Notes: generated by a model from the sequence alone, not told the origin. Counted from the first letter of the stretch, positions 9,082 through 60,061 are shown. The stretch is 64,000 nucleotides of DNA from Vicinamibacteria bacterium (GCA_963668695.2 CAXXLQ010000004.1:1-64000); one strand, 5' to 3'. Numbers and translations: made by a program.

Positions 9082-9279
9082 CAGCCTGTGGTGAAACCCA
9101 CGTGAGCGCCGAGGCTGGCCAGTTCTCCCGGTGGGGGCGAGGCGCCCGGCTGACAAGGCGCGTGAGGGAGGAATACCGAGTGTATTTCGACCGAAACGCA
9201 ACGATGAGCGGCGCGAAGCGACGCGGTTCAGCCGGGATGGATCGCCGGCCGAACGCCGCGTGGGTTTCACCACAGGCTG
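9082..9279 (+). mobile_element. MITE copy A
   Basis: Perfect TIR CAGCCTGTGGTGAAACCCAC / GTGGGTTTCACCACAGGCTG with CTAA on both sides; one 21-mer at 9118-9138. Confidence 0.85.
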
Positions 9280-9428
9280 CTAACACCGCGGAGACTCGGA
9301 GCGGCGCGGAACGGGACGCCCAGGCTCCATCCCGCCCGGTTCCATCTACCGGCGGACTGCTACGATGGCGGCGGACCTTTGGAGGCCCTTGCATCCTGGA
9401 CTCGGGGCCCCGGAACGGCAGGGATTCA

Positions 9429-10859
9429 ATGATGCCTCCTATGACCCCATCCTCGGCGCTCCTCGCCGGACTGCTCGTTTTCGCTACCGCCGCGCCACTC
9501 GGCGCCCAGCCCCCCACCCTGCCCGGAGACCCCTTCGGAGAGGACCCCTTCGGAAACCGTTTCGAGGAGCCGGACGCCGATGTCGACGCCATGGTCCGGT
9601 CCGCGTTCTTCGCGAGAGGCGGCGCGCAGCGGAACCGGGCGCTCCGCTTTCTGGTCGAACGCGACGAGAAGGACGTGATCCCGGCGTTCATCGCGGTCCT
9701 GCGGCTCCTGCCCGACGAGGACGGACGGCTCCTCGACGCGCTCCAGCAGCTCGCCCGGGCGAACATCCCCCGCGACTGGAAGGCGTGGACCGAGTGGCAG
9801 GAAGAGCACACCGAGATCCGTCCCTACCGCGGGTTCGTCTCCTTCAAGGCCGACGTCCTCGCCGGAATCGATCCCAACTTCCGCGACTTCCTCCACCGGG
9901 GGGTGCGGCACGAGATCCGGATCGAGGAGATCGTCTGGGGGGGCGTCAAGAAAGATGGCATCCCGGCGCTCGTGAACGCCAAGCAAATCCCGACCGCGGA
10001 AGCGACCTATCTCACGGACCGCGAATTGATCTTCGGAGTGAGCATCAACGGCGACTCGCGCGCCTATCCGCTCCGCATCCTGGACTGGCACGAGATGTTC
10101 AACGACGTAGTGGGGGGCGTCCCGGTGTCGCTGGCCTACTGCACGCTCTGCGGGTCGGGCATTCTGTTCGATACCCGGGTTCCCGGGCGCCGGGAACCCT
10201 TCGTGTTCGGCTCCTCGGGGCTGCTCTACCGGTCGAACAAGCTGATGTACGACACGGAAACCGAATCGCTCTGGAACCAGTTCACCGGCCGGCCGGTCGT
10301 GGGCGAACTCACCGGGTCCGGGATCGAACTCAAGATCCTGCCGGTGGTGATCACGAGCTGGAAGGACTGGCTCGCCGCGCATCCGGACACCACGGTGCTC
10401 TCGCTCGACACCGGTTTCGAGCGGGACTACCGGCCCGGACAGCCCTACGCGGACTATTTCGCGAGCCCCGAACTCATGTTTCCGGCAGTGGTCCGCGACC
10501 GCCGCCTCGACCCGAAGGACCGCATCTTCGTCCTCCGGGACGGGGACAACGAGATGGCGTGGGCCATATCGGTCTTCGGGAGCGGCGCCATCCTCCACGA
10601 CCGGGTGGGGTCGCTGGATGTCGTCCTCATCGGCAACGGCGAAACCGAAACCGTGCGCGCCTACGAATCCGGCGGGCGGACCTTCACCGCGGTGGAGGGT
10701 GATCCGGCGCGCGTCGAGAGCGACGGAGCGGGGTGGAACGTCACGGAAGACGCGCTGACCGGACCCGGGGGCGAGAGCCTCGTCCGGCTCCCGGGACACG
10801 TCGCCTACTGGTTCGCCTGGCAGAGCTACAAGGACGGACGACCGCTCAGGGTGGAGTAG
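9429..10859 (+). CDS. DUF3179 domain-containing exported protein
   Basis: Signal peptide; GGVKKDGIPAL, RAYPL.IL.WHE..ND, YCTLCGS, FG.SG.LY.SN.LMYD..T.SLW.Q. Confidence 0.9.
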   Translation: MMPPMTPSSALLAGLLVFATAAPLGAQPPTLPGDPFGEDPFGNRFEEPDADVDAMVRSAFFARGGAQRNRALRFLVERDEKDVIPAFIAVLRLLPDEDGRLLDALQQLARANIPRDWKAWTEWQEEHTEIRPYRGFVSFKADVLAGIDPNFRDFLHRGVRHEIRIEEIVWGGVKKDGIPALVNAKQIPTAEATYLTDRELIFGVSINGDSRAYPLRILDWHEMFNDVVGGVPVSLAYCTLCGSGILFDTRVPGRREPFVFGSSGLLYRSNKLMYDTETESLWNQFTGRPVVGELTGSGIELKILPVVITSWKDWLAAHPDTTVLSLDTGFERDYRPGQPYADYFASPELMFPAVVRDRRLDPKDRIFVLRDGDNEMAWAISVFGSGAILHDRVGSLDVVLIGNGETETVRAYESGGRTFTAVEGDPARVESDGAGWNVTEDALTGPGGESLVRLPGHVAYWFAWQSYKDGRPLRVE

Positions 10860-11089
10860 CGACGGCGGCCGGCGGGATGCCGCCGACGGCCGGAGGCCAG
10901 GTCCATGTTGCCTTGGCGACTTCTTCGGGAGACTCTCCCGCTTGGCGGATTCGCGTTACCCGCGACTCTGGACCAGCACGGAGAGCCTCGGTACCCGGGG
11001 CCGGCGGCACATCCGTTTGCCGCGACTCGACATCCCGGGAACAGCGTCTCGGATCTCACCAGCCTTCGGCTGGCGATGCCGGTCTGAAG

Positions 11090-11110
11090 GCCCCCACCGG
11101 GAGAACTGGC
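11090..11110 (-). repeat. Solo 21-nt motif GCCCCCACCGGGAGAACTGGC
   Basis: Exact copy of the motif found in the MITEs, 10 bp past the peroxiredoxin stop. Confidence 0.85.
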
Positions 11111-11120
11111 CGGCGCTCCC

Positions 11121-11780
11121 TTACTTGTTCGGCTGGGCGACCAGGCGCAGGTAGGGCTTCGGAGCCCGCCAGCCGCCCGGATACTTCGCGCGGGCCGCTT
11201 CGTCGGAGACCGCCGGGACGATGATCACGTCGTCCCCGTCCTTCCAGTTCACCGGGGTCGCCACCTGATGGGACGCCGTCAACTGCATGGAGTCGAGCAC
11301 CCGGAGAACTTCGTCGAAGTTGCGCCCGGTGGTCATCGGGTAGGTCAGGATCAGCTTGACGCGCTTGTCGGGTCCGACGACGAACACCGAGCGCACCGTC
11401 ATGTTGTCCATCGCCGTCCGGCCTTTCCGGCCGAGGGCATTGGGATGGATCATGTCGTAGAGCTTGGCCACCGCGAGGTCGTCGTCACCGATCATCGGGT
11501 AGTCCACGGCGTGCCCCTGGGTCTCCGCGATGTCGGCCTTCCAGCGCTGGTGGTCCTCGACCGGGTCCACGCTCAGCCCCATGATCTTGCAATTCCGTTG
11601 CGCGAACTCGCCCTGGAGCCCCGCCATGTAGCCGAGCTCGGTGGTGCACACCGGGGTGAAGTCCTTTGGATGCGAGAAGAGAATCGCCCAGCCGTCCCCG
11701 ACCCAGTCGTGGAAGCTGATCGTGCCCTCGGTCGTGCGGGCGGTGAAATCGGGCGCGATGTCGCCGATGCGGATAGCCAT
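11121..11780 (-). CDS. 1-Cys peroxiredoxin (Prx6)
   Basis: FSHPKDFTPVCTTELG, YPMTTGRNFDE, TPVNW. Confidence 0.95.
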   Translation of the reverse strand: MAIRIGDIAPDFTARTTEGTISFHDWVGDGWAILFSHPKDFTPVCTTELGYMAGLQGEFAQRNCKIMGLSVDPVEDHQRWKADIAETQGHAVDYPMIGDDDLAVAKLYDMIHPNALGRKGRTAMDNMTVRSVFVVGPDKRVKLILTYPMTTGRNFDEVLRVLDSMQLTASHQVATPVNWKDGDDVIIVPAVSDEAARAKYPGGWRAPKPYLRLVAQPNK

Positions 11781-11878
11781 GTGGTCCCCTCCTGAGGCTC
11801 TAAGAGCGCCGAGCGTTCGTCAGCACTCGGGAGAACGATAGCCCCACACCGCCAGCAGCCTGTGACACGCTTATTCCC

Positions 11879-13234
11879 ATGAGCAAGGCTGGATCGGGCG
11901 AGGGCCTGCAGCGGCGGATGGGGCTCCTCGGGGCCACCTCCACGAACATCATCGGAATGGTCGGGATCGGTCCCTTCCTGACCATCCCGCTCATGGTGTA
12001 CGCGATGGGCGGGCCGCACATCATCTGGGCGTGGCTGGTCGGAGCGCTGCTCTCGCTTGCCGACGGACTCGTGTACGCCCAGCTCGGGGCTGCGCTCCCG
12101 GGGAGCGGCGGACCGTACATCTATCTGCGGGAGGCGTTTCGTCCGTTCGGACTCGGGCGGCTCATGGCCTTCCTGTTCCTCTTCCACATCCTGCTGGTGG
12201 CGCCCCTCTCGCTCGCCGGCGGCGCGGTGGGTTTCGCTGACTACGTTGGCTTCTACCTGCCGGAGTGGAGCGGGGTGCCCCACCACCTCGCCGCCGCCGG
12301 GGTCTGTGTGCTCGTCCTCTTCCTTCTCTACCGGAACATCGACTCGGTCGAGCGGCTCTCGAAGGCGATGCTGGCGCTCGTGCTCGCCACCACCGGCTGG
12401 GTGATCGTGGCCGGCCTCATCGAGAGTCCGGGACTCCCCTCGTTCGTCCCGCCGCAGGGGTTCGACGCCAGCTTCTGGCCGGCGCTCGGAGCCGGGGCGG
12501 TGATCGCGATGTACAGCTTCGGCGGCTACAACCAGGTCTGCAACATCGCCGGAGAGGTGAAGGACCCGGAGCGCAACATCCCGCGCTCCATCCTGCTCTC
12601 CATCGCGGTAGTAGCCGTCATCTACATCGCCATGACCACCGTGATGCTCGAGCTCATCCCGTGGCAGGAAGCGGAGGCGAGCCGCACCCTGGCTTCCATC
12701 TTCATCGCCCGGACGGTCGAAGATCCCGGACTCGCGCAACTCGCCGGGTCGGTCATCACCGCGCTCATCCTCTTCGTGGCGGTCGCGTCCGTGTTCGCCT
12801 TTGCGCTCGGCTATTCGCGGATGCCGTACGCCGCCGCCCGCGACGGACAGTTCTTCCGCATCTTCGGCAAGGTCCATCCCACCCGGGGCTTCCCCCACGT
12901 TTCGCTGATCTGGCTCATCGCGGTCTCGATCCCGTTCTGCTTCTTCAGCCTCGGCCAACTCGTAAACTGGCTCATGCAGGTCCAGATCCTCCTGCGCTTC
13001 ACCTGGCAGTGCGTCGCGGTGCTGCTGATCGCCCGCTACCGGCCGGACATCCCCCAGCCTTTCCGGATGTGGCTCTACCCAATTCCGGCGCTGCTGTCGC
13101 TCGTCCTCTGGATCGCGCTCTTCTTCACCGGGCCGCCCACCGGAGTCTGGTTCTCGCTCGGATTCCTGCTCCTGGGCCTCGCGGCCTACTGGGTCTTCCG
13201 CAGGCGGGAGGGCCACCGCACTTCCGCCGGCTGA
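11879..13234 (+). CDS. APC family amino acid permease
   Basis: ~12 TM; GMVGIGPF, PGSGG.Y.YL, GEVKDPERNIPRSI. Confidence 0.9.
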   Translation: MSKAGSGEGLQRRMGLLGATSTNIIGMVGIGPFLTIPLMVYAMGGPHIIWAWLVGALLSLADGLVYAQLGAALPGSGGPYIYLREAFRPFGLGRLMAFLFLFHILLVAPLSLAGGAVGFADYVGFYLPEWSGVPHHLAAAGVCVLVLFLLYRNIDSVERLSKAMLALVLATTGWVIVAGLIESPGLPSFVPPQGFDASFWPALGAGAVIAMYSFGGYNQVCNIAGEVKDPERNIPRSILLSIAVVAVIYIAMTTVMLELIPWQEAEASRTLASIFIARTVEDPGLAQLAGSVITALILFVAVASVFAFALGYSRMPYAAARDGQFFRIFGKVHPTRGFPHVSLIWLIAVSIPFCFFSLGQLVNWLMQVQILLRFTWQCVAVLLIARYRPDIPQPFRMWLYPIPALLSLVLWIALFFTGPPTGVWFSLGFLLLGLAAYWVFRRREGHRTSAG

Positions 13235-13256
13235 ACCTGGAACGCGGGCGGCGCTT

Positions 13257-14141
13257 CTACCGCTGGACCCGTTTGTCGTTCCGATAGAACTCCTCCCGCA
13301 CCCCTCCGTTCTTCAGGTGGACGAGCCAGCGGCCCTCCCTCTTCCCCTCGAGGTAGTTCCCGCGGGCCACCCCGAGTCCGGGGAAGCGATGGACGAACGG
13401 CCCCTGTCTCTTTCCCGCCACCATGGGACCCTCTTCGATGCTGCCGCTCATGTAGGTGAAGACCCAGGGTCCTTCCGCCACTCCATCCACGTAGGGCCCC
13501 TCGGCCACGTCCCCGTCCGCCTCGCGGGAAACCCACTGGCCATGCCGCGCGCCCTGCACGAAAGGTCCTTCCTGCTCGCCACCGGCGGCGTCGCGAAGGG
13601 ACCACCTGCCGTGCCGCCGGCCAGCCACCAGCGGGCCCTCCTCGATCGCCCCGTCCAGAAACCGAAAGGTCCAATGGCCCTCCTGATCACCGTCCACGTA
13701 CGAGCCTTCCTCGACCTGTCCGTCAGCGCTGCGCTGGATCCAGTGCCCGTGGCGATCCCCGTCCGCAAAGGGCCCTTCTTCCACCCTACCGTCCCGCCAG
13801 CGGAGGACCCAGTGGCCTTCCCGCTCGCCATCCACATAGGCTCCCTCCTCTTCCTGTCCATTCGGGAAGCGGTGGATCCAGGGCCCCACCCGCTCGCCGT
13901 CCTCGAAAGCCCCTTCCTCGACCTGCCCGTTCGGCCAGCGGAACACCCAGCGGCCGTACCGCACCCCATCCAGGTAGGTTCCTTCCTCGACCTTGCCGCT
14001 CGCCAGCCAAATGGTCCAGCGACCATGGCGCTCGCCGTCCCGGAAGCTTCCGGTCGCTTCGACCTCTTGAGCGCGGGCGCCAACCACCAGACTCCCGCTC
14101 ATCATCACCGCCGCAACCGCAGCGTTTCGCAGTGCCCTCAC
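13257..14141 (-). CDS. Exported MORN-variant repeat protein (YwqK-like)
   Basis: Signal peptide followed by ~11 repeats of ~23 aa, EEG.(Y/F)..G.R.G.W. Confidence 0.85.
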   Translation of the reverse strand: MRALRNAAVAAVMMSGSLVVGARAQEVEATGSFRDGERHGRWTIWLASGKVEEGTYLDGVRYGRWVFRWPNGQVEEGAFEDGERVGPWIHRFPNGQEEEGAYVDGEREGHWVLRWRDGRVEEGPFADGDRHGHWIQRSADGQVEEGSYVDGDQEGHWTFRFLDGAIEEGPLVAGRRHGRWSLRDAAGGEQEGPFVQGARHGQWVSREADGDVAEGPYVDGVAEGPWVFTYMSGSIEEGPMVAGKRQGPFVHRFPGLGVARGNYLEGKREGRWLVHLKNGGVREEFYRNDKRVQR

Positions 14142-14154
14142 ACTGCGACGGAGC

Positions 14155-15492
14155 CTATCTGAGCCTACGGACGACGGGTACGCACCAGAAGTAGAGCGCC
14201 ACGAGATCCACTCCGCGCGCGACGAGCGTCGCCCAGGACGCCGCGTACACCCCGACCATGTTGACGGGTCGAATCAGCGCCCAGAGCACAAACAGGACCG
14301 CAACGGTTTCGATCAAGCCGGCCCAGGTGATGGCTCGGGTCTCGCCGCTCCACACGAGGAAGGCCCGATAGAAGGCGAGCAGAACCGAACACAGCGGCAT
14401 CGCGACCAGGATCTGAAGGGCGGGCACCGAGAGGTCCACGAGACTCGGCGTGAGTGCCGAAACCCCTCCGAACCAGAGGCCGGAGAGCGGAGTGAAGGCC
14501 ATGATGCCCTGCAGCACGCAGGCCACCACCCCGAGACCGACGGCGAATCGGAGCAGCGCCCGGAATCGCTGCCTGGTCCCGTCCATGAAGGCGATCGCCA
14601 CCTCCTGGAAGGACAGGCCCATGCTGCGGAACAGGAAGGAAAGGGCGGCCACCACCGGATAGGTCGCGAGAGACTCGAGCGCGAGGCGCGAGTGCCCGAG
14701 GAACAGGTTCACCAGCGGATGGATCGCGAGCGCGATTACCGAGCTCACGAGCAGAGGGATGTAGAAGTGGAGGATCTTGGGAAAGGTGAGCGGTTCGCCG
14801 CTCCTGGGAGTGGCGAGCACCTCGCGCACGCAGTCCGCCACCATGAAACGGGTCGCGATCGCTTCGACGACCACTGCCACCGAGAGCGCCGCGGCCCCGA
14901 TGAGGGCTCCGGGAACCTCCGCATCGAAGAACAGCCACGCGGTCACGCCCATGCCCGACAGACGGATGGTGGTGCCGTAGGCGATCCGCCGGGTATGGCC
15001 GTGCCGGATGAGGAGCCCCTGGTAGAAGCGGCGGAAGCCGATGGCCGCCGGCCAGGGAAGGAGGATGAGAAGGGCCTGACGGCTCAACTCCGAGATCTCC
15101 GGGTCGAGGCCCATCACGCTCTCCGCGAGCAGCGGATAGAGCGGCGAGAGGGCCCACGCGAGCATCAGGAGCGTGAGCCCCAGGTTCAACGTCGCACCGA
15201 AACGGCGGAGCGAACGGAATGCCTCCCGATCCTTGCAGAGGGCCGTGGAGGCGCTCAGGATCATGATGATCGGCGCCTCGAGGATCAGCGCGAAAGCGAA
15301 GGCGACCCCGTAAGCGGCGAGGTTCACGGTGGCGTCGGGAAGTCGGGCAACCACCGCGGCCACCAACAGCCCCTCGACGGACATCATGATCCAGGTGGCG
15401 GCCATCGGCAGCCAAACCCAGAAGATCCGGCTGGTGGTGAGTGGCGCTTGGGGCGGCGCCGCGACTGGGGTCTTGCCGAAGGTGGGGGTCAC
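14155..15492 (-). CDS. MATE-like multi-pass membrane protein
   Basis: Two hydrophobic halves (IFWVWLPMAATW... / ILHFYIPL...); GTG start overlaps hemW stop. Confidence 0.75.
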   Translation of the reverse strand: MTPTFGKTPVAAPPQAPLTTSRIFWVWLPMAATWIMMSVEGLLVAAVVARLPDATVNLAAYGVAFAFALILEAPIIMILSASTALCKDREAFRSLRRFGATLNLGLTLLMLAWALSPLYPLLAESVMGLDPEISELSRQALLILLPWPAAIGFRRFYQGLLIRHGHTRRIAYGTTIRLSGMGVTAWLFFDAEVPGALIGAAALSVAVVVEAIATRFMVADCVREVLATPRSGEPLTFPKILHFYIPLLVSSVIALAIHPLVNLFLGHSRLALESLATYPVVAALSFLFRSMGLSFQEVAIAFMDGTRQRFRALLRFAVGLGVVACVLQGIMAFTPLSGLWFGGVSALTPSLVDLSVPALQILVAMPLCSVLLAFYRAFLVWSGETRAITWAGLIETVAVLFVLWALIRPVNMVGVYAASWATLVARGVDLVALYFWCVPVVRRLR

Positions 15493-34524: not shown

Positions 34525-34721
34525 CAGCCTTTGGAGAAAGTGGCGTGAGCACCGAGAACGGCGAGGCGCCTGGCTGACAAGGCGCGTGAGGGAGGAATAC
34601 CGAGTGTATTCCGACCGAAACGCAACGATGAGGGCCGCGCAGCGCCAGTTCTCCCGGTGGGGGGCCGTTTCAGCCGGGATGCATCGCCGTTCGAATGCCG
34701 CGTGACTTTCTCCACAGGCTG
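34525..34721 (+). mobile_element. MITE copy B, inside the ABC operon
   Basis: TIR CAGCCTTTGGAGAAAGT / ACTTTCTCCACAGGCTG; flanks TCAA/TTAA; internal hairpin GGAATAC-CGAGT-GTATTCC; one 21-mer at about 34644-34665. Confidence 0.85.
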
Positions 34722-45226: not shown

Positions 45227-46756
45227 GTGCCTCGCTTCTACCTGACCACCGCCATCGACTACGTCAACTCACCGCCGCACCTCGGCACGGCCTACGAGAA
45301 GATCACCGCCGACGTGATCGCGCGCTTCAAGCGGAGCGCGGGGTACGACACCCACTTCCTGATGGGGGCCGACGAGCACTCCCTCAACGTGCGCCGGAAG
45401 GCTGAAGAACAGGGCCTCGATCCGCTGGACTACTGCGCCAAGATGGAGGACACCTTCCGCGCGGTCTGGGCGAAGCTCGACGTCTCCTACGACGAGTTCA
45501 TCCGCACCACCGAGAAGCGGCACCACCTGGGGGTCCAGAAGCTGCTCAAGGCGATTCGCGCCCGGGGCGGCATCTACGAGGGAACGTACGAGGGTTGGTA
45601 CTGCGTCTCCTGCGAGGCCTTCAAACAGGAGAAGGATCTTGAAGACGGCACCTGCCCCCTCCACCGGGCAAAGCCGGACTGGATCTCCGAGAAGAACCAC
45701 TTCTTCCGCCTCTCGGCGTACCGCGACCGGTTGCTAGAGTTGTACCGGGACCAGCCGAGCTTTATCGAGCCCGAGACCCGGCGGAACGAGCTGACGAACG
45801 TCCTCGAAGCGGGGCTCCTCGATCTTTCGGTCAGCCGGCCGAGCACCGGCTGGGGAATCCCGGTGCCTTTCGACGACGCCAGCGTGGTGTACGTCTGGTT
45901 CGACGCGCTCATGAACTATCTCTCGGCAACCGGTTACGGGACCGACGAGGAAGGCTGGGAGGAGCGCTGGCCCGCCGACCTCCACATCGTGGGCAAGGAC
46001 ATCACCCGCTTCCACGCCGTGATCTGGCCGGCCATGCTGATGGCGGCCGGGCTTCCCATCCCGCGGCAGGTCTTCGGGCATGGCTTCGTGAACTTCCAGG
46101 GAGAGCGGATGAGCAAGTCGCTCGGAACGGCAGTGGACCCGCTCGAAGCGAGCGACCACTTCGGCCCCGACCCGCTCAGACTCTTCCTGGTCCGCGAAAT
46201 CCAGTACGGACAGGACGGTGACTTCTCCTGGGACCGTTTCGAGGCGCGTTACGACTCGGATCTCGCCAACGCGCTCGGGAACCTGGTCAGCCGCATCACC
46301 TCGATGGCCGCCCGCTATCGCGATGGCCGGCTGGCCGCTTCGGCCCGCTCGGCTCTTCCTGAAATCTCGACCCGGGCGGTCGCCGACTACCGCGAGGCGA
46401 TGGAGGGACTTCGTCTTCACGACGGGGCGGCCGCCGCCTTCCGGATCGTCGGGGCGGTCAACGAATTCCTGACCTTGCGCACTCCCTGGAAGCTCGCCAA
46501 GGATCCGGACGCCGGAGAGGCGCTCGACGAAGCTCTCTACGAAGCCGCGGAGGCAACCCGGATCGCCGCCGTCCTTCTCCATCCGGTCATGCCGAAGTCC
46601 ACCGCTCGCATTCTTGAACGCTTGGGCGGCGCGTCCGCCGATCCGATCCGCTTCGACGAGCACGCCGTCTTTCAGGGAGCCCGGGTCCTCGCCACGCAGG
46701 CGGGGGCACCCCTCTGGCCGCGGCTCTCCACCCGGCGATCAGGAAACCGGGGGTAA
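45227..46756 (+). CDS. metG: Methionine-tRNA ligase (short form)
   Basis: FYLTTAIDYVN..PHLG, YCVSCEAF, YVWFDAL, GKDI.RFH, RMSKS. Confidence 0.96.
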   Translation: MPRFYLTTAIDYVNSPPHLGTAYEKITADVIARFKRSAGYDTHFLMGADEHSLNVRRKAEEQGLDPLDYCAKMEDTFRAVWAKLDVSYDEFIRTTEKRHHLGVQKLLKAIRARGGIYEGTYEGWYCVSCEAFKQEKDLEDGTCPLHRAKPDWISEKNHFFRLSAYRDRLLELYRDQPSFIEPETRRNELTNVLEAGLLDLSVSRPSTGWGIPVPFDDASVVYVWFDALMNYLSATGYGTDEEGWEERWPADLHIVGKDITRFHAVIWPAMLMAAGLPIPRQVFGHGFVNFQGERMSKSLGTAVDPLEASDHFGPDPLRLFLVREIQYGQDGDFSWDRFEARYDSDLANALGNLVSRITSMAARYRDGRLAASARSALPEISTRAVADYREAMEGLRLHDGAAAAFRIVGAVNEFLTLRTPWKLAKDPDAGEALDEALYEAAEATRIAAVLLHPVMPKSTARILERLGGASADPIRFDEHAVFQGARVLATQAGAPLWPRLSTRRSGNRG

Positions 46757-47025
46757 CAGCCTGTGGTGAAACCCACGCGGCCCAGTTCTCCCGGTGGGGG
46801 CTCGAGCGGCGATCCATCCCGCCTGAACCGCCCCCCCACCGGGAGAACTGGCGCTTTGCGGCGCTCGACGTTGCGTTTCGGTCGAAATACACTCGGGCCA
46901 GTTCTCCCGGTGGGGGCTCCTCCCTCACGCGCCTTGTCAGGCGGGCCCCCACCGGGAGGACTGACCCCACCGGGAGAACTGGGCCTCACCGCTCTCGGCG
47001 CTCACCCGGGTTCCACCACAGGCTG
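46757..47025 (-). mobile_element. MITE copy C (inverted) carrying five 21-mer insertions
   Basis: GTAA on both flanks; TIR CAGCCTGTGGTG(A/G)AACCC; motifs at about 46781, 46833, 46897, 46945 and 46964. Confidence 0.85.
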
Positions 47026-47061
47026 GTAAGCGGGCAGGCCACGGCTCGCGGCGCCTCGGGA

Positions 47062-52171: not shown

Positions 52172-52656
52172 CAGCCGGTGGGCAGAGTGGCGTGAGCACC
52201 GAGAGCGGTGAGGCGCCCGGCTGACAAGGCGCGCGAGGGAGGAGCCCCCACCGGGAGAACTGGCCCGAGTGTGTTTCGACCGAAGCGCAACGATGAGCCA
52301 CGCGAAGCGGGGCGGCCAGTTCTCCCGGTGGGGGCCAGCCGGGATGCATCGCCGCTCGCTTCCGGAGCGGGGCGCCAGCACCGCGGAGACCCCGGAGCGG
52401 AAGAGACGGGGGACGGGAGCACCCGACCCCCATCCCTCTTGACTCGGGCTTCCGGAGCGGGGCGCAAGCACCGCGGAGACCCCGGAGCGAGAGGGATGGG
52501 GGACGGGAACACCCGACCACCATCCCTCTTGACTCGGGCTTCCGGAGCGGGGCGCAAGCACCGCGGAGACCCCGGAGCGAGAGGGATGGGGGACGGGAAC
52601 ACCCGACCACCATCCCTCTTGACTCGGGAATGCCACGAGACTCTGTCTACAGGCTG
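52172..52656 (+). mobile_element. MITE copy D with two 21-mers and a 3x90-bp internal array
   Basis: CAGCCGGTGGGCAGAGT...ACTCTGTCTACAGGCTG; scaffold matches copies A and B. Confidence 0.85.
52358..52627. repeat. Tandem array, 3 x 90 bp
   Basis: Units start at 52358, 52448 and 52538: gcttccggagcggggcgcaagcaccgcggagaccccggagcgagagggatgggggacgggaacacccgaccaccatccctcttgactcgg. Confidence 0.95.
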
Positions 52657-52752: not shown

Positions 52753-53793
52753 TCAGATCGCCCCGACTTCGCGGAGGAGATCGAGCGTTCCCCGCAGGTC
52801 GTCCAGATCCCCGAGTTCGAGGTCCGGCGGATTGATTTCGGAGAGGGGCGTCACCGCGGGATCGGTAGGGATCCCCTCAACCAGCGGATACTCGAACGTT
52901 TCCCGGGCGAAACGCTCCTGCACCGATTCCGTGAGCAGATAGGCCAGGAACCGCTCGGCGGCTTCGGGGTTGGCCGCCGTGTTCACCACCCCGCCGCCGG
53001 AGATGTTGATGAGGCCTCCGGCTCCTCCTCCCGCCGGGCTCACGGTCCGCGCGGCGAACTCCGGTCCCTGCTGGACCAGGAAGCGGAAGAGGTAGTAGTG
53101 GTTCGACAGCGCCAGCTCCACTTCCCCGTCCGCAACCGCCTGGTAAATCGCCGAGTTGTTCGGGTAGGCCACCGGGTCGTTGGCCAGTACTCCTTCGAGC
53201 CATTCCCTGGCAGCGTCCTCTCCCTCGAGCCGCCGGACGGCCGTCACGAACGCCTGGAAGGATCCGTTCGTCGGCGCCCAGCCGATGCGGCCTTTCCAGC
53301 GAGGATCGGTCAGACCGTGGATCGTGTCCGGCAGATCCTCGGGGGTCAGGAGTTCGGTGTTGTAGACGAACACCCGGGCGCGGCCGGTGGTGCCCACCCA
53401 GCGCCCGTTCGGATCCCGGAAACGGGATGAAACCCGATCAAGGATCGACTCGGGAAGCGGACTCAGACGGCCTTCGCTCGCCAATTGGCCAAGGGCTCCC
53501 GCGTCTTGACCGTAATAGACGTCCGCCGGACTCTGGTCGCCCTCTTCGAGAATCTGGGCCGCGAGGTCCGCGGTCCCGCCGTACCGGATCTCCACCTGGA
53601 TCCCCGTCTCCTCCTGAAACGCCTGAACCACCGGCCCGACGAGCGACTCTCCTCGGCCACAATAGATGGTCAGGGTCTCGGGCTCGGGAGTGCCAGTGCA
53701 GCCGGCAACGGCGGTGAGGACAATTGCGGCGGCTCCAAGCTTCCCGAAATCGGTCGCCGAGAGCCGCTTTGTGATACTGAAAATGGCTTTCAT
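52753..53793 (-). CDS. fbpA: Fe3+ ABC transporter substrate-binding lipoprotein
   Basis: Lipobox VAGC; EG..SPADV, W.G...RARV.VYN, NHYY Tyr pair, FEYPL. Confidence 0.9.
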   Translation of the reverse strand: MKAIFSITKRLSATDFGKLGAAAIVLTAVAGCTGTPEPETLTIYCGRGESLVGPVVQAFQEETGIQVEIRYGGTADLAAQILEEGDQSPADVYYGQDAGALGQLASEGRLSPLPESILDRVSSRFRDPNGRWVGTTGRARVFVYNTELLTPEDLPDTIHGLTDPRWKGRIGWAPTNGSFQAFVTAVRRLEGEDAAREWLEGVLANDPVAYPNNSAIYQAVADGEVELALSNHYYLFRFLVQQGPEFAARTVSPAGGGAGGLINISGGGVVNTAANPEAAERFLAYLLTESVQERFARETFEYPLVEGIPTDPAVTPLSEINPPDLELGDLDDLRGTLDLLREVGAI

Positions 53794-53820
53794 AGTTGAT
53801 AACTCTACCAAAATTATTCC
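53794..53820. promoter_or_regulatory. AT-rich Fur-box-like site upstream of fbpA
   Basis: agttGATAACtctaccaaaATTATTcc in the 64-bp divergent gap; partial match to GATAAT...ATTATC. Confidence 0.35.
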
Positions 53821-53857
53821 GCCGGCGCGTTTCTTGCTAACACCACCTTCGCACCCC

Positions 53858-54958
53858 ATGCCAACCCGGACACTTGCGTCAGCCGTCCTGGTGGCCGCTG
53901 TGTTCGCAGGCCTCGCCGAGGGTGCCCAGATCGAGCTGGAACGGCGGATCTCGGCGGTCTACCGGACGGCCAGCCCCGCGGTCGTGAACATCACCGCTGA
54001 AATCCAGAGCTACGACTGGTTCCGGGGCCAGGTCACCCAGCAGGGCACCGGCTCCGGGTTCGTCTACGACGGCCAAGGGCACATCGTCACGAACTACCAC
54101 GTCGTGGAGGCGGCCGATCAGCTTCAGGTCACCTTCTCCGACGGCGAAGTGCGCGATGCCCGGCTCGTGGGAGCCGATCCCTCGAACGATCTTGCAGTCC
54201 TCGAAGTGGCGGCCGGCGCCAACGATCCGGAACCCTTGGCGCTCGGAGACTCCGACGCCCTCGAAGTAGGGCGGTTCGTGGTGGCCATCGGACATCCCTT
54301 CGGCCTCGACCAGACCTTGACCACCGGAGTCGTGAGCGGCCTCGGCCGCATCATCGAGAGTCCCGATCGGGGATTCATCGGCGAGATCATCCAGACCGAC
54401 GCGGCCATCAATCAGGGGAACTCCGGAGGGCCCCTGCTAGACCTCGATGGACGGGTGGTCGGTGTAAACAGCGCCATCGTGAGCCCCACCGGGACCTCCG
54501 CGGGAATCGGGTACGCCATTCCCGCCGCCACGCTGGCGCGCGTCGTGCCGGAACTGATCCGGAACGGCCGATACCCGCACCCCCACCTGGCGATTTCGGT
54601 CCAGGAGATCAACGAGCAGTTCGCGGCCTACTTTCGCCGGGTCGGAATCGCGGCCCCCCCGGAGGGAGGTCTCATGATCCGGGCGGTCGCGCGGGGCGGG
54701 CCCGCGGACCGCGCCGGGCTGCGCGGAGCGGGCCAGGTTGGACGAATCGGCAACCTGCGGATCCGCTACGGCGGGGACTACCTACTGGCGGTAGACGGAC
54801 ATGCCGTAGGTACGGAGCGCGACCTCCTGCTTCTCCTCGAAACGAACTACCGGGTAGGTGACGAAGTCGGCCTGCGGCTCTGGCGCGACGAGCGCGAACT
54901 GGAGGTACGGGTCCAGCTCATCGACCGCGACACCGTCGTGCGCAGGCGGCGCCGGTAG
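53858..54958 (+). CDS. HtrA/DegP-like S1C serine protease with one PDZ domain
   Basis: TNYHVV, DLAVL, QTDAAIN.GNSGGPL; signal peptide. Confidence 0.93.
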   Translation: MPTRTLASAVLVAAVFAGLAEGAQIELERRISAVYRTASPAVVNITAEIQSYDWFRGQVTQQGTGSGFVYDGQGHIVTNYHVVEAADQLQVTFSDGEVRDARLVGADPSNDLAVLEVAAGANDPEPLALGDSDALEVGRFVVAIGHPFGLDQTLTTGVVSGLGRIIESPDRGFIGEIIQTDAAINQGNSGGPLLDLDGRVVGVNSAIVSPTGTSAGIGYAIPAATLARVVPELIRNGRYPHPHLAISVQEINEQFAAYFRRVGIAAPPEGGLMIRAVARGGPADRAGLRGAGQVGRIGNLRIRYGGDYLLAVDGHAVGTERDLLLLLETNYRVGDEVGLRLWRDERELEVRVQLIDRDTVVRRRRR

Positions 54959-54966
54959 AACGCTAG

Positions 54967-55270
54967 CAGCCTGTGGTGGAACCCGGGTGAGCGCCGAGCC
55001 CGGGGAGGCCCAGTTCTCCCGGTGGGGCCAGTTCTCCCGGTGGGGGCCCGGCTGACAAGGCGCGTGAGGGAGGAGCCCCCACCGGGAGAACTGGCCCGGG
55101 TGTATGCCGACCGAAACGCAACGATGAGCGGCGCGCAGCGACGCGGTTCAGCCGGGATGGATCGCCGGCCGAACGCCGCGTGGGTTTCACTACCGGCTGT
55201 TTGGCCGGGATGGATCGCCGGGCGAGCCCCCACCGGGAGAACTGGGCCGCCTGGGTTTCACCACCGGCTG
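54967..55270 (+). mobile_element. MITE copy E with duplicated right end and four 21-mers
   Basis: Flanks CTAG/CTAA; right terminus occurs twice (ends 55199 and 55270); motifs at about 55009, 55027, 55075 and 55226. Confidence 0.85.
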
Positions 55271-57007
55271 CTAACTCCGGGCGGATAGCAGCCGGGTCAG
55301 CGCGAAGGCGGACGCCAGGGCGAGGAGAGCCCAGGACAGGGTGATGGCGAGACCGCGTCCGAAGAGCAGCGCCCCGCTCCCGAAGAGCACGGAATAGACC
55401 ATCACGCAGGCCACCGGCCACGCGAGAAAAGCGCGGGTGACGGGCTCGGGGCGCAACCGCGTACGAACGTAGGCGGCGTCCCAACCGGGACGCGGTGGCC
55501 GGGTTCGCTCGACGAAGGCGTCGAGCGTCTCCTTCGACTCGGCCGGGGTCACCAGAGTTGCGCCTACCCAAATCACCGTAGTGGCGGCCAGGCCGATCAC
55601 CAGTCCCCGAATCGAGCCCGGCTGGATCCCAAGAAGCGGAAGGGACACCGCCACCCCCAGCGATCCCGCCATGCCGGCGATCTCGCTCCAGGCGCTGATG
55701 CGCCACCACAGCCAGCGCGCGATGAAGAGCGGCCCGGTACCGGCCCCGATCTGGAGCAGCAACCCGAAACCTCCCCGCGCGGTGTCGATGAAGAGCGTGA
55801 GCAGTCCGGCCGCCGCCATCAGGAGGATGGTGGCGGCGCGCGCTACCGCAACGGATTCGCGAGCTCCGGCGGCGGGCCGGAAGAACCGCCGGTAGACGTC
55901 CTCCACCACATAGGAGGCGCCCCAGTTGAGGTGGGTGTCCACGGTGGACATGTAGGCCCCCGCGAGCGAAGCGGCGGCCAGACCCAGGAGTCCGGGCGGC
56001 AGGAGCCGGAGCATGAGGGGATAGGCGAGGTCGTCGCCGACAAGCGCCGGGTCGAGGCCGGGCAGCGCATCCCGGAGAGCGGCCAGATCCGGATAGACGG
56101 CCAGTGAGGCAAGGGCCACCAGGATCCAGGGCCAGGGTCTCAGGGTGTAGTGGGCGATGTTGAACCAGAGCGTCCCCCGGAGCGCGTCCTTCTCGCTCCG
56201 GGCGGCCAGCATCCGCTGGGCGATGTAACCGCCCCCCCCGGGCTCCGCTCCCGGGTACCAGACGCTCCACCACTGGAGCGCCACCGGCACCACGAACAGG
56301 ACCGCGAATGCTTCGGTCCCGGTCGGTGGAACGATGGCGAGGCGGTCCCCGAACTGCTCCACCAGCCCCGAAAGACCACCCACCGCCGGGTGTCCGAGCG
56401 CCCAGACCGCCGCCACCACGGCCCCCACCATGGACAGGACGAACTGCAGGAGGTCGGTGACCACCACTCCCCAAAATCCCGCGACCACCGCGTAGGCGGC
56501 CGCCAGCACGCCGGCGATCAGGACGGCGGTCGACTTGTCCAGTCCGAAAAGTACGCCGCCGATCTTGGCGCCCGCGAGGGTGACGGTGGCAATGACCACG
56601 CAGTTGAAGAAGACCCCGAGATACACCGCGCGGAATCCGCGCAGGAAGGCGGCCGGTTTTCCCGAGTAGCGGATCTCATAGAACCCCAGGTCCGTCGTGA
56701 GCCGACTCCGCCGCCACAGCGGCGCGAAGATAAACACCGTGAGCATGCCGGTGATGCAGAAGGCCCACCACGCCCAGTTGGCGGCCACGCCGTTCTGCCG
56801 GACAAGTTCGGCGACCAGGTTCGGGGTATCGGTCGAGAAGGTGGTCGCCACCATCGAGGTCCCGAGCAACCACCAGGGAAGTCGCCGCCCGGCGAGAAAG
56901 AAGGAATCGCTGTCCTTCGCCGCGAAGCGGACCGCCCACAGACCAATGGCGAGCACCGCAGCCAGATAGAGCCCGAAGACGATCCAGTCCAGCCCGCCGA
57001 AAGCCAT
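55271..57007 (-). CDS. Sodium:solute symporter family protein
   Basis: FFLAGR.LPWW..G.SMVATTF..DTP, GGGY..QRM.AA.SE, A.MST..T.LNWG.SY. Confidence 0.93.
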   Translation of the reverse strand: MAFGGLDWIVFGLYLAAVLAIGLWAVRFAAKDSDSFFLAGRRLPWWLLGTSMVATTFSTDTPNLVAELVRQNGVAANWAWWAFCITGMLTVFIFAPLWRRSRLTTDLGFYEIRYSGKPAAFLRGFRAVYLGVFFNCVVIATVTLAGAKIGGVLFGLDKSTAVLIAGVLAAAYAVVAGFWGVVVTDLLQFVLSMVGAVVAAVWALGHPAVGGLSGLVEQFGDRLAIVPPTGTEAFAVLFVVPVALQWWSVWYPGAEPGGGGYIAQRMLAARSEKDALRGTLWFNIAHYTLRPWPWILVALASLAVYPDLAALRDALPGLDPALVGDDLAYPLMLRLLPPGLLGLAAASLAGAYMSTVDTHLNWGASYVVEDVYRRFFRPAAGARESVAVARAATILLMAAAGLLTLFIDTARGGFGLLLQIGAGTGPLFIARWLWWRISAWSEIAGMAGSLGVAVSLPLLGIQPGSIRGLVIGLAATTVIWVGATLVTPAESKETLDAFVERTRPPRPGWDAAYVRTRLRPEPVTRAFLAWPVACVMVYSVLFGSGALLFGRGLAITLSWALLALASAFALTRLLSARS

Positions 57008-57082
57008 TAGCCTGCCAAACCGTAACCGAACCCCACGGCCGCCCCCGACTGACCTTGACCGCGCCCTAAACTCCCGTTCCTG

Positions 57083-57961
57083 ATGCGGGTGGCGACACTC
57101 CTCTGGATCTCGCTGGCGTTAGCAGCCGGTGGACAAAGTCAGGCCTCCGCCCAGGAAATTCAGATCGGGGGAAGGCGGGCTGCGGAAGCGTTGCTCGCGC
57201 GGGTGCTGGAACACCGCGAGGCCGTGCGGCGGCTGGAAGGCCAGCTGACCTTCCGGCAACTGATCACGACCGAAGCCCTCGACGAACAGCGGAACGTCGT
57301 CTCCACCGCCAACGCACTCTACGAATACGAGCCGGTGTTCGGCCGTCACCTCTGGAAGCTGCTCGAACTCGACGGCGAGGCGATCGGCGGGCGGCGGTTC
57401 CGCCGGGAAGAGCGGCGTTACCGGCGGGCCGTCGAAGCGGCAAAGGAGGAGGCCGAAGAGGACCGCCTGGCCCTGGAACGCCGGGATCCGGACTACGAAG
57501 TCCTCCCCAAGAACGGAATGGACCTCTTCTACGAGATCGCGAAGGACGCGCTCGAGCTCGAGATGTTCGAGGGAGAACTGTTCCGGGGCGCTACCTGGCG
57601 CGGCCGGCCCATGCAGATTGTGCGCTTCCGGCCTCGGCCGGGGTTCGAAGACGCTCCCAACCGGATGATGTCGGTCGTGTCCAAATGCGCGGGCGAGCTA
57701 TGGGTGGATCCGGAGAGTCTGCAGATCGCCCGGGTTCGGAGCGTCCTCCAGCAGGACGAGAACTTTGTTGCCGGCCTCTTCGGGCGTCTCCACCGCGGGA
57801 CGAGCACCGAGGTGGAAAGCCAGTTCGACGGAAGGATCTGGCTCCCGCAGCGAGTGACCATGACGGTGGACGCCCGGATGTACTTCATCCGCAGGATTCG
57901 CCGGCGGGTCCACTACGACTTCCTGGGTTTTCGTTCGTTCCCGCCGCCCACAGACCGGTAG
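57083..57961 (+). CDS. Hypothetical exported protein
   Basis: Signal peptide; beta-rich C-terminal half (G.LWVD......R, WLP). Confidence 0.75.
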   Translation: MRVATLLWISLALAAGGQSQASAQEIQIGGRRAAEALLARVLEHREAVRRLEGQLTFRQLITTEALDEQRNVVSTANALYEYEPVFGRHLWKLLELDGEAIGGRRFRREERRYRRAVEAAKEEAEEDRLALERRDPDYEVLPKNGMDLFYEIAKDALELEMFEGELFRGATWRGRPMQIVRFRPRPGFEDAPNRMMSVVSKCAGELWVDPESLQIARVRSVLQQDENFVAGLFGRLHRGTSTEVESQFDGRIWLPQRVTMTVDARMYFIRRIRRRVHYDFLGFRSFPPPTDR

Positions 57962-57980
57962 CATTATCTGTTCGTCGGCC

Positions 57981-58730
57981 ATGCTCACCCTCACCCCACT
58001 CGAAGGGATCCCGGAAGTCGAACCCGGATGCGATCTGGCCCACCTGCTGCTCGACGGCATGCTCCGAGCGCACCTGGACCCCGCCGACGGCGACATCCTC
58101 GTGGTGTGCCACAAGGTCGTTTCCAAGGCGGAGGGCCGCCTGGTCCGCCTCGACCGCATGCGGCCTTCCAAGATCGCCCGCGCCTGGGCCCGCGCGAACG
58201 GACGGGACGAACGCGAGGTCCAGGCAGTAATGGGCGAGGCGCACAGCATCGTCCGGGTGCAGCGCGGGGTTCTGATTACCCAGACCCGTCACGGCTTTGT
58301 GTGCGCCAACTCGGGCGTGGACCGCTCGAACGTGCCCGAAGGCCATGTGTGCCTGCTGCCGGAGGATCCCGACCGTTCGGCAGGCGAGCTTGCCGCGCGG
58401 CTGTCCTCAGCGACCGATGCGGCCCTGGGAGTCGTCATCACCGATACGTGGGGCCGTCCCTTCCGGTTGGGAGCGATCAACGTGGCCATCGGGATCGCGG
58501 GCGCCTGCTCGCTCCTCGACTATCGGGGGCAGCAGGATCCTGCCGGCCGCACACTCCGGTCGGCGACGACCGCCGTGGGAGACGAGTTGGCGGCAGCCGC
58601 GGGCATCGTGATGGGCAAGTTGAGGCGAATTCCGGCGGTCCTGGTAAAGGGGTTCCCGTCGGATCCGGCTGGACAGCGCGGCACCGGGGCTTCGCTGATT
58701 CGCGACCGCGGGGAAGACCTCTTCCAGTGA
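57981..58730 (+). CDS. cofE: Coenzyme F420-0:L-glutamate ligase
   Basis: GIPEV.PG.DL, K.VSKAEG, G.VCANSGVD.SN, LP.DPD.SA, DT.GRP.R.G, DELA.AA...MGK. Confidence 0.93.
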   Translation: MLTLTPLEGIPEVEPGCDLAHLLLDGMLRAHLDPADGDILVVCHKVVSKAEGRLVRLDRMRPSKIARAWARANGRDEREVQAVMGEAHSIVRVQRGVLITQTRHGFVCANSGVDRSNVPEGHVCLLPEDPDRSAGELAARLSSATDAALGVVITDTWGRPFRLGAINVAIGIAGACSLLDYRGQQDPAGRTLRSATTAVGDELAAAAGIVMGKLRRIPAVLVKGFPSDPAGQRGTGASLIRDRGEDLFQ

Positions 58731-59467
58731 GCGGCCCCCGCTTCGCGGTGCTGGGCGGGAGCGGACGGTTCGGACTCGGGCTCGCGTGGAGGCTTGCGGT
58801 CGGCGGAGCCGAGGTGGTGATCGGCTCCCGCGATGAGGGCCGAGCCATGGACGCCGCGACTCGAGTCCGCCGCGGGCTGGATCCCGCGGGCGGCGCTCCT
58901 TTCCCGGAACAGGAACTCACTGTGTCCGGGACGACCAATCTGGCGGCGGCGGGCGCTGCAGAAACAGTGTTTCTCAGCGTGCCTTTTTCCGCGCAGGAGG
59001 TCCTGCTGCACGAGGTCGGCCCCGCGCTCGAATCGAAAATGGTCATCTGCTGCGCCGTGATGTGGCCACCGGGTTCACGGCCGGAGACCTCAGCAGCCGA
59101 AGAAGCCGAGCGGACCCTCCGCCGGACGGGCGCCCGGAAGGTCCGCATCGCCGCCGCCTTCCAGACGATCGCCGCCGGCGTCCTGCGGCGCCTGCCGGAG
59201 CCGGCCTCCCGGGACGCATCACCGGATGTCCTCGTATTCGCCGACGAACCGGCGAACTGTGAGGCCGCCGCCCGGGCGGCGGCGTTCTCCGGGTTGCGGG
59301 CGGTACCCACCGGACCGCTGCGAGGATCCCGCGTCGCCGAGGCCGCCCTCTCGTTACTGATGGAGCTGAACCGGGGTCCCGCGCGCCACGCCGGGCTGAT
59401 GGTCACCGGTCTGGCAGCCGGTGGGCAAAGTCACGTGAGCACCGAAAACGGTGAGGCGCCCGGCTGA
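58727..59467 (+). CDS. npdG: NADPH-dependent F420 reductase; C-terminus now read from MITE copy F
   Basis: GGSGRFG.GLA.R, V.IGSR, SAAE, AAFQ, G.L..SR..E; GTG start overlaps the cofE stop. Confidence 0.8.
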   Translation: MSGPRFAVLGGSGRFGLGLAWRLAVGGAEVVIGSRDEGRAMDAATRVRRGLDPAGGAPFPEQELTVSGTTNLAAAGAAETVFLSVPFSAQEVLLHEVGPALESKMVICCAVMWPPGSRPETSAAEEAERTLRRTGARKVRIAAAFQTIAAGVLRRLPEPASRDASPDVLVFADEPANCEAAARAAAFSGLRAVPTGPLRGSRVAEAALSLLMELNRGPARHAGLMVTGLAAGGQSHVSTENGEAPG

Positions 59468-60061
59468 CAAGGCGCGCGAGGGAGGAGCCCCCACCGGGAG
59501 AACTGGCCCGAGTGTATTTCGACCGAAGCGCAACGATGAACGAAGCGTAGCGAAGTGCTTCAGCCGGGATGCATCGCCGGTCGCTTCCGGAGCGGGGCGC
59601 AAGCACCGCGGAGACCCCGGAGCGAGAGAGATGGGGGACAGGAACACCCGGCCCCGGTCCCTCTTGACTCGGGCTTCCAGAGCGGGGCGCAAGCACCGCG
59701 GAGACCCCGGAGCGAGAGGGATGGGGGACGGGAACACCCGACCACCATCCCTCTTGACTCGGGCTTCCAGAGCGGGGCGCAAGCACCGCGGAGACCCCGG
59801 AGCGAGAGGGATGGGGGACGGGAACACCCGACCACCATCCCTCTTGACTCGGGCTTCCGGAGCGGGGCGCAAGCACCGCGGAGACCCCGGAGCGAGAGGG
59901 ATGGGGGACGGGAACACCCGGCCCCGATCCCTCTTGACTCGGGCTTCCGGAGCGGGGCGCAAGCACCGCGGAGACCCCGGAGCGAGAGGGATGGGGGACG
60001 GGGACACCCGACCACCATCCCTCTTGACTCGGGAATGCCGCGTGACTTTGTCCACAGGCTG
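59415..60061 (+). mobile_element. MITE copy F with one 21-mer and a 5x90-bp internal array
   Basis: CAGCCGGTGGGCAAAGTCACG...CGTGACTTTGTCCACAGGCTG; flanks CTGG/CTAG. Confidence 0.85.
59583..60032. repeat. Tandem array, 5 x 90 bp (same unit as 52358-52627)
   Basis: Units start at 59583, 59673, 59763, 59853 and 59943, with few substitutions. Confidence 0.95.

Follow-up and report, generated by a model that had tools for sequence, protein, structure and literature searches.

The first 64,000 nucleotides of contig C4 of a Vicinamibacteria bacterium assembly (GCA_963668695.2, CAXXLQ010000004.1:1-64000; hereafter the window) contain many copies of a 20-nt block, CCAGTTCTCCCGGTGGGGGC. It recurs inside copies of a miniature inverted-repeat transposable element (MITE), inside a hairpin resembling a repetitive extragenic palindromic (REP) sequence and, elsewhere in the genome, inside a protein-coding gene. 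A first-pass annotation, made from the sequence alone, had taken a 21-nt form of this block, GCCAGTTCTCCCGGTGGGGGC, for an independently mobile element that repeatedly invades the MITE. The analysis reported here indicates that the block is probably an ultra-short insertion element like the small dispersed repeats (SDRs) of cyanobacteria, a discrete unit whose entry would be directed by DNA structure and which would then multiply at second hand.

The window and its repeats

The 21-mer or its reverse complement matches the window 15 times at up to two mismatches, against 0 matches in 100 shuffles. Fourteen of these matches, the number first annotated, lie inside six copies (A to F) of one MITE, and the fifteenth lies in a REP-like hairpin. 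Copy A (9082-9279, plus strand; 198 bp, or 179+19) has a block at 9118-9138 (+) at site A1, where entry follows the CCGG|N rule described below, its sites B, C and D being empty. Copy B (34525-34721, plus strand; 197 bp) has a block at 34644-34664 (+) at site C, and its site B is empty (ATA). Copy C (46757-47026, minus strand; 270 bp), which lies between the two halves of a TAA duplication and is missing from this locus in the relatives G001 and G004, holds five blocks, at 46781-46801 (site D), 46832-46852 (site C), 46897-46917 (site B) and, as a tandem pair at site A2, 46945-46965 and 46963-46983. The composite copy D (52172-52656, plus strand), the whole of which is likewise absent in G001 and G004, carries blocks at 52244-52264 (site B) and at 52315-52335, a further site where TT is replaced. 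In copy E (54967-55270, plus strand), whose right end is duplicated, an A2 tandem pair (55009-55029, 55027-55047) is followed by blocks at 55075-55095 (site B) and 55226-55246 (site D of the second end), while copy F (59415-60061, plus strand) has a single block at 59487-59507 (site B). Comparison of the copies bears out the filled and empty alleles first described: copies A and B are empty and C to F filled at GGAGGA[ATA]CCG, B and C are filled at AGCG[ACG]CG, D is filled at GCG[GTT], C and E are filled at the right-end site and carry two 18-nt units in tandem, and copy A has a +19 variant.

The REP-like double hairpin (11060-11122, minus strand) lies just after a minus-strand gene, and its block (11090-11110, minus) replaces one loop base beside a CCGG stem. 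A degenerate core with two mismatches in unique DNA (61069-61086, plus strand) may be a chance match or a decayed copy. Copies D and F also carry in their right arms (52340-52630 and 59575-60035) a module of ~90 nt (GCTTCCGGAGCGGGGCG...CTCTTGACTCGG) in 3-5 tandem units, ~3 in D and, after the block, ~5 in F; one haplotype differs by one unit. No Rfam families were found in the window, and a viral collection searched for the block gave one chance-like match and nothing more.

The assembly and the genomes compared

The source assembly (G000) comprises 4.10 Mb in four contigs at 67% G+C and was compared with related genomes numbered from G001 onwards, 41 of which were searched for the 18-nt core of the block, CCAGTTCTCCCGGTGGGG. 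It is 92% complete with 9% 'contamination'. The ends of C4, the contig that the window begins, overlap over ~135 kb at ~99% identity (window 13600-64000 against G000:C4:3783000-3838000), contig C1 is a ~99% copy of C4:304-421 kb, and contig C3 is a 97.6-99.7% copy of C4:3505-3538 kb. These duplicates are strain haplotypes retained within one assembly and probably account for the 'contamination'.

Sequencing runs matching the window include some labelled sponge metagenome, and the motif is also present in public metagenome-assembled genome records of relatives titled Vicinamibacteria or 'Candidatus Marinacidobacterium'. The read data, consisting of runs as contigs that break at MITEs and carry no per-locus allele information, recover the window's unique parts in independent runs up to the MITE edges. 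Contigs from an RNA library cover the MITE bins at a depth that sums hundreds of copies and may include DNA, and give no evidence of transcription. A long-repeat self-comparison of G000 revealed no obvious multi-copy insertion sequence (IS) of at least 700 bp; the five top long-repeat loci inspected consist of satellites and a Calx-beta-like repeat protein, not IS. Kilobase-long satellite arrays with units of ~24-27 nt lie at G000:C4:121000-124000 and 2329000-2331000.

Abundance and form of the block

The core is the commonest 18-mer of G000, with 1,288 exact copies (648 plus, 640 minus), or one per 3 kb, and 1,631 at up to two mismatches; the best 18-mer of the MITE backbone reaches ~440 copies on both strands. 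Half-motifs are seldom found alone, the left half having 1,365 copies and the full core 1,288. A sequence logo widens the core to GG[G/C]-core-GC, the left junction being GG|CC nearly always and the right junction GGCC in about one-fifth of copies. Block orientation shows no bias with respect to replichore in G000.

The block is not palindromic, has no terminal inverted repeats beyond its GCC/GGC ends, and occurs as single units in either orientation or as direct tandems, not as inverted doublets. Its tandem units in G000 are exact 18-nt head-to-tail repeats (140 doubles and 4 longer runs), and most copies are single and dispersed, unlike those of a plain minisatellite. The CCC-GGT-GGG mini-hairpin seen by the first-pass annotation failed to stand out in a fold test, which gave no significant hairpin on either strand (z 0.5 and 0.0), and the paired changes of one block variant form no base pair and so lend no compensatory support to a fold. 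The block is free of stop codons in every frame, as had been remarked, a property that we estimate to be expected of about 4 in 10 random 21-mers at 67% G+C. A one-base subfamily (T-to-C) comprises 156 copies in several contexts, and a two-base variant, also in several contexts, occurs mainly in another genus. In 246 filled copies of MITE site D, selected by length, the minor-allele share is at most 0.01 in all 21 columns of the insert; the MITE backbone columns have a mean rare-variant rate of 1.18%, and those near the ends are as clean as the insert.

The host MITE and its insertion sites

The host MITE, whose ends read CAGCCTGTGG..., has 1,049 end matches in G000 and 591 homology intervals that make up 3.3% of the genome. 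Terminal inverted repeats and a target-site duplication, the hallmarks of a MITE, are found in the 179-bp host element only and not in the block. The host duplicates 3 bp; of 11 empty-site comparisons, the four clearest give TAA, TAG or TAC. The duplication is seen at window 46754-46756 and 47027-47029 and at 10 other loci, often at or beside gene ends. The host MITE has moved recently, since at ~15 of the 44 repeat loci mapped G000 has a MITE where the 95%-identical G001 has an empty site. G000 has seven DDE_Tnp_1 matches, none of them flanked by MITE ends, and no other transposase gene so flanked was found.

Among 333 clean end pairs, MITE lengths form a ladder of 18-bp steps, with 62 elements at 179 bp, 45 at 197/198, 37 at 215/216, 44 at 233/234, 36 at 251/252 and 15 at 269/270, and not one of the 62 copies in the 179-bp class contains the core. 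Site states were scored with motif-free anchors and are thereby free of ascertainment by the motif. Of 603 copies anchored at site B, 289 are empty and 297 filled; of 478 anchored at site D, 214 are empty and 246 filled; and site C is filled in ~67 of 472. Region A is empty in 241 of 651 copies, the rest being longer by 18 (76), 19 (112), 36 (95), 37 (34) or 54/55 nt (47).

The block thus occupies five or more sites of the MITE, in both orientations. At A1, GCCGG[N] becomes GCCGG[20-mer], a 20-for-1 exchange; at A2 a single block is a 20-for-2 exchange with a final T, and a double block is a pure +36; and at B, C and D 21 nt replace 3. The net gain, annotated as +18, is indeed +18 at most MITE sites, and is +19 at CCGG|N sites. 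Other small blocks, in 2-6 copies each, are present in G000 MITEs (an 18-nt G/C-rich palindrome-like block, a 21-nt C-rich block, a 34-nt perfect hairpin and a 13-nt block), which may harbour small inserts of more than one type.

The block outside the MITE

MITE homology contains or adjoins 1,362 of 1,630 core matches; the other 268 are elsewhere. Most of the latter sit in the REP-like double hairpin, GATGCCGG-TCTGAAGA-CCGGCGTTCC; among 218 such hairpins anchored by regular expression, the inner part measures 8 nt in 98 and 27 nt in 56. In filled hairpins the 20-mer substitutes for the loop's first base following either CCGG arm; filled hairpins include both orientations and several loop variants, and in low-copy relatives the block is also found in the second hairpin of the element. 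The empty hairpin (GCCGGTCTGAAGACCGGC, window 11076-11093) resembles an inverted pair of neisserial uptake sequences plus one base, presumably by coincidence. The block can also enter itself: another genus has a block inside a block at its own CCGG|T, while G000 has 0 nested cases.

The one case that gives polarity is in a gene of the AcrB/AcrD/AcrF family (ACR_tran, E 1.7e-133), where a block lies at C4:394435. G000 and G001 read ...GAGCCCG-[20-mer, reverse orientation]-CGGGATG..., with the same flanks around the core in contig C1, whereas all four other genomes aligned (G004, G008, G010 and G014) read ...GAGCCCG-CG-CGGGATG or near variants, 18 nt shorter. The block replaces the central CG of the palindrome CCCG|CG|CGGG in frame, giving HGGEP-GPHRENW-RDAA, seven codons in place of one. 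Because the four outgroup genomes lack a block there, the alignment identifies the insertion as a polarised gain, made in an ancestor shared by G000 and G001. A second case in a coding sequence (CDS), a G012-type genome against G000, also shows a +18 difference, and neither CDS case can be conversion between repeats. In the low-copy relative G010 (locus L105, ~1501) a core is located within a CoaBC-like flavoprotein gene, in the variable linker, where it reads SSPGGG; in G000 this linker is too divergent to define the junction.

Across these contexts the block has entered many unrelated sites as a discrete unit: its ends are constant, it lies in either orientation, and no target duplication accompanies it. 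Instead of being duplicated, target bases are lost, from 1 to 3 at each insertion (20-for-1, 20-for-2 or 21-for-3). In most of the roughly ten site types read, the insertion lies in a loop beside a GC-rich stem of 4-5 bp. Preferred targets would then be short GC-rich stem-loops, usually entered right after a CCGG, CGGC or CCCG stem arm; candidate examples are the loops of the REP-like hairpin, internal hairpins of the MITE, the block's own CCGG|T and CCCG|CG|CGGG of the AcrB-family gene.

Distribution among relatives

The core is present in 21 of the 41 related genomes, which are separate assemblies: it occurs in every one of the 15 congeners and in four further genera of the family, and in none of 16 genomes of two other families (the unpublished G033 included). 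Congeners carry between 6 and 1,288 copies and sister genera between 0 and 220, and three complete genomes of the family have 0 copies. The ratio of MITE motifs to cores also varies. Rich genomes contain 629 MITE motifs and 1,288 cores (G000), 306 and 564 (G001), 421 and 631 (G004) or 383 and 525 (G008), and others contain 98 and 6 (G010), 56 and 1 (G020), 52 and 5 (G007) or 20 and 220 (G018). Because relatives with many MITEs hold almost no block, the empty MITE is the ancestral state, and the history of the block, as read from these counts, is one of lineage-specific bursts. The counts also rule out, at the level of the family, a single ancestral MITE that carried every copy and was followed by losses.

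Turnover between haplotypes and sister species

Haplotype pairs at ~99% identity provide the finest comparison. Of 52 repeat loci, 49 could be mapped, 38 being structurally identical and 11 having indels, and the same DNA contains six clean block-only events at four loci against 26 substitutions. At one locus the sole difference is GAGG[CGC]CCGG versus the 21-mer; at another, one haplotype has both of two adjacent B sites filled and its partner has both empty, 400 nt there containing 3 substitutions. Losses of a less tidy kind also occur: in the far-end C4 haplotype, MITE copy C has a 15-nt deletion inside its site-B block (an imprecise loss) and one tandem unit fewer, and two direct block copies also act as deletion end-points.

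Between G000 and G001 (95-98% identity), 44 of 71 repeat loci were mapped, ~15 of them being MITEs in G000 only, and 33 of 113 mapped cores are shared. A MITE common to both genomes and absent in G004 differs at sites B and A2; another differs at three sites and at subfamily single-nucleotide polymorphisms (SNPs) as well. No polarity is obtained from the polymorphic MITE loci, where G001 and G004 lack the MITE or the flank cannot be placed.

Fill states within the MITE are close to equilibrium and nearly unlinked, with 27 of 32 combinations seen among 304 MITEs; sites B and D are positively associated in their filled states (odds ratio ~5). Filled and empty copies share identical flank variants at 2-5 nt from the junction. 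For site C, filled copies are spread over three backbone haplotypes with differences at 5 of 17 adjacent bases, and every one of these haplotypes also has matching empty copies. A backbone tree requires 86-90 changes per site against ~98-100 with shuffled labels. A single idiosyncratic junction per MITE site fits one founding event per site followed by homology-driven spread, and short-patch conversion between paralogues would explain both the reproducible junction at each site and the frequent gain and loss in situ. The repeated invasion of the MITE proposed by the first-pass annotation therefore needs qualification: the block does insert, while much of the pattern may be inheritance, conversion between paralogues and slippage, as indicated by fixed junctions, co-changed SNPs and plain deletions. 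We take the pattern inside the MITE to be mostly second-hand spread by transposition, short-patch conversion and slippage, and estimate primary insertions at ~15-20 distinct site types across the family.

The search for an enzyme

Candidate enzymes were searched for in G000 and related genomes. Y1_Tnp, the HUH domain of IS200 and of the REP-associated tyrosine transposases (RAYTs), has 0 matches in G000, G004, G018 and G019; it is present in many low-copy relatives and is uncorrelated with block copy number. The reverse transcriptase (RT) domain RVT_1 has 0 matches, and 0 first-look candidates, in G000, G004 and G008, which contain 525-1,288 cores, and is present in 2 of 15 congeners scored. 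The RT and HUH/RAYT routes suggested at first thus find no counterpart in these genomes. Y2_Tnp gave no match, its control matching nowhere either, and TnpB-type proteins gave none above cut-off. A weak Cas1-like match (26 bits, just over cut-off) lies at G000:C4:3284095-3284739; a simple scan found no CRISPR-like array within 20 kb of it, only MITE material.

The IS110 family, also proposed as a partner, was considered as the mover and rejected: G000 has one copy, its ends are unlike the block, and its distribution tracks that of the block only loosely. This element (C4:482125-483892; L178 1227-2994) encodes a 415-aa transposase and lies inside a REP-like hairpin. A copy 92% identical at a non-syntenic place in G004 indicates that it is mobile between the two genomes, and no half-blocks stand at the flanks of the G004 copy. 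IS110-family matches number 10-11 each in G004, G008 and G014. Ku was rejected as the determinant, being found in 39 of 41 genomes searched, G000 included, without tracking copy number. Three simple schemes for the junctions were also discarded. A split '+3/+15' insertion around GTT(C)/GAAC accounts for site D, for the second unit of A2 and for one comparison of CDS, and not for the hairpin, A1 or the AcrB-family gene; a 15-nt element with a 3-nt duplication has ends that do not repeat; and blunt cutting and ligation at GG|CC fits the left junction only.

How the block might spread

In the explanation that we consider probable, an SDR-like insertion element of 20 nt enters its targets as a discrete, structure-directed unit and is then multiplied at second hand. 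Primary insertion would take place on DNA, guided by structure, from a donor with defined ends, and would be catalysed by an as yet unrecognised enzyme. A donor with defined ends, rather than microhomology switching, is favoured by the constancy of the block ends across unrelated contexts, and the loss of target bases without duplication argues against DDE-type transposition. Three routes of multiplication may follow: transposition of the host MITE, recently active with its 3-bp TAA, TAG or TAC duplications; slippage of exact 18-nt units; and homology-driven short-patch conversion among ~600 MITE and ~200 hairpin paralogues. A more specific proposal, that a dedicated, unrecognised enzyme, neither RT nor HUH, pastes the 20-nt cassette into the loop side of GC-rich stem-loops in genes and repeats alike, is tentative, and we regard it as a doubtful possibility.

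Several other accounts deserve comparison. Breaks at palindromes or hairpins might capture a released or copied fragment of 18-20 bp by end joining or template switching, with no dedicated enzyme; the loss of 1-3 target bases without duplication, the two orientations, the hairpin and palindrome targets, the nearly invariant GG|CC left junction and the presence of Ku in G000 and in nearly all genomes searched would all suit such repair, which we nevertheless judge unlikely given ends that are constant across independent contexts, junctions identical in hundreds of copies, a right junction that is GGCC in only about one-fifth of them and a copy number that Ku fails to track. It is also rather improbable that the block is a signal selected by the host, a binding or uptake site (akin to DNA uptake sequences (DUS) and uptake signal sequences (USS), or recognised by a nucleoid or RNA-binding protein) spread by selection or biased conversion. 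Block copies are far cleaner than the MITE backbone, the exact core is common to five genera, the strands are equally used without replichore bias and many copies lie in 3'-flank hairpins, as a signal would predict; yet the conservation across genera was ascertained by an exact-match search, a range of 6 to 1,288 copies among congeners and of 0 to 220 in sister genera, complete genomes included, is unlike a conserved function, and point mutation cannot make a 20-nt block at new sites, so that an insertion mechanism would be needed anyway.

That the block is a passenger module, which arose once or a few times in the MITE and owes its diversity to amplification, conversion and deletion with no mobility of its own, is very unlikely. 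One fixed junction per MITE site, the association of filled B and D, the two changed loci with co-changed subfamily SNPs and the deletions between two direct block copies agree with it, and taken as the only process it is already contradicted by the CDS gain, to which are added the same 20-mer in REP-like hairpins (both orientations, several loop variants) and in itself, genomes with 56-98 MITE motifs that hold 1-6 cores, and clean changes in MITEs that otherwise show no substitutions or hardly any. Retro-insertion by RT from an RNA intermediate would rest on analogy and on the RNA-library contigs over MITE bins, summed over copies and possibly DNA; with no RVT_1 in three of the richest genomes, an RT in only 2 of 15 congeners and no significant fold on either strand, we give it a very small chance. 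An assembly or adapter artefact has no observation in its favour and almost no probability at all, the core being found in 21 of 41 separately assembled genomes and in other public records, and the window's unique parts being carried by independent runs up to the MITE edges. The original claim of independent insertion is upheld by the same ends in the MITE, the REP-like hairpin, the block itself and CDS, by one polarised CDS gain and by the empty MITEs of relatives.

A number of observations count against the insertion element that we favour. Neither an enzyme nor a master copy was found. With G000 at 92% completeness, a gene could be missing from the assembly. Polarity was obtained for the AcrB-family site only, the MITEs at polymorphic loci being absent from the outgroups. 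Junctions in the MITE are site-specific (final GC, GT or GG; 20- or 21-mer), and would fit single origins with conversion as well as repeated insertion. The backbone tree is weak (median support 0.76), with one control SNP column nearly as scattered as the fill states. At two changed loci where subfamily SNPs changed too, conversion or replacement of the whole copy is likely, and some block differences are ordinary deletions or slippage. The stem-loop rule for targets, finally, is suggested by the sequences of about ten independent site types.

Relation to known repeats and significance

Mosaic intergenic repeats such as the bacterial interspersed mosaic elements (BIMEs) of E. coli, pneumococcal BOX and the neisserial intergenic mosaic elements (NIME) with dRS3 are built of short modules whose copy number varies by slippage. 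Unlike those modules, the block is also found beyond its host repeat, with the same ends, in a gene and other repeats. DUS and USS, like the block, stand at about one per few kb equally on both strands, often lie in terminator-like hairpins and have clade 'dialects'. They arise by point mutation and are uniformly abundant within a clade, whereas the block varies from 0 to 1,288 copies in closely related genomes and comes in as an indel. The palindromic elements of Rickettsia, of 100-150 bp, lie in frame inside genes. The block resembles them as an in-frame repeat tolerated in a conserved protein gene and differs in that 7 codons replace 1.

To our knowledge, there is one earlier description of self-moving elements of ~20 nt, from cyanobacteria in 2008, and the mechanism behind them has not been solved. 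These are SDR1-8 of Nostoc-type cyanobacteria, reportedly described by Elhai et al. in 2008 as repeats of ~20 nt, for which an RNA intermediate is said to have been proposed and never shown. The passages citing them in three later papers (PMC5861425, PMC2884548, PMC3116915) describe no mechanism. SDRs and the block share a length of ~20 nt (21-27 nt for the class), hundreds of dispersed copies, residence in mini-transposons and other repeats, a short preferred target (HIP1 for SDR5, CCGG|N for the block), nested self-insertion, confinement to one coherent clade, and filled and empty alleles; SDR4-6 reportedly have a shared fold with compensatory changes, whereas the block has no significant fold. 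The block further differs in belonging to another phylum, in its unrelated sequence, in the lack of RT from the richest genomes, and in its greater density, exact 18-nt tandem units and polarised in-frame gain in a conserved gene. The likeness first drawn to cyanobacterial SDRs fits, SDR-type very small mobile repeats being a descriptive class rather than a homology family and the nearest known class to the block. REP sequences and their doublets (REPINs; PMC3116915) are likewise short, very abundant, extragenic, hairpin-linked and clade-specific; they are imperfect palindromes with a conserved tag, arranged as inverted doublets and accompanied by a Y1 RAYT, whereas the block enters hairpins, is no palindrome and has no Y1_Tnp match in G000, G004, G018 or G019.

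A literature search found no publications on this element. The block is a second, unrelated case of an SDR-like element, here in Acidobacteriota, and one of the smallest insertion elements seen. Its practical effects are that short-read assemblies break, that seven codons are added to proteins, and that deletions and MITE rearrangements are seeded. It is denser than SDRs, shows clean presence and absence between 99%-identical haplotypes, and ranges from 0 to 1,288 copies in closed or nearly closed sister genomes. With a polarised gain, haplotype differences and such a range of copy number at hand, what inserts a 20-nt block and how hairpins are found become directly testable questions. If a dedicated enzyme were responsible, it would represent a new kind of structure-directed 'nano-transposition', active or silent between sister species, and its gene would be findable by contrasting genomes of 0-6 copies with those of 500-1,300.

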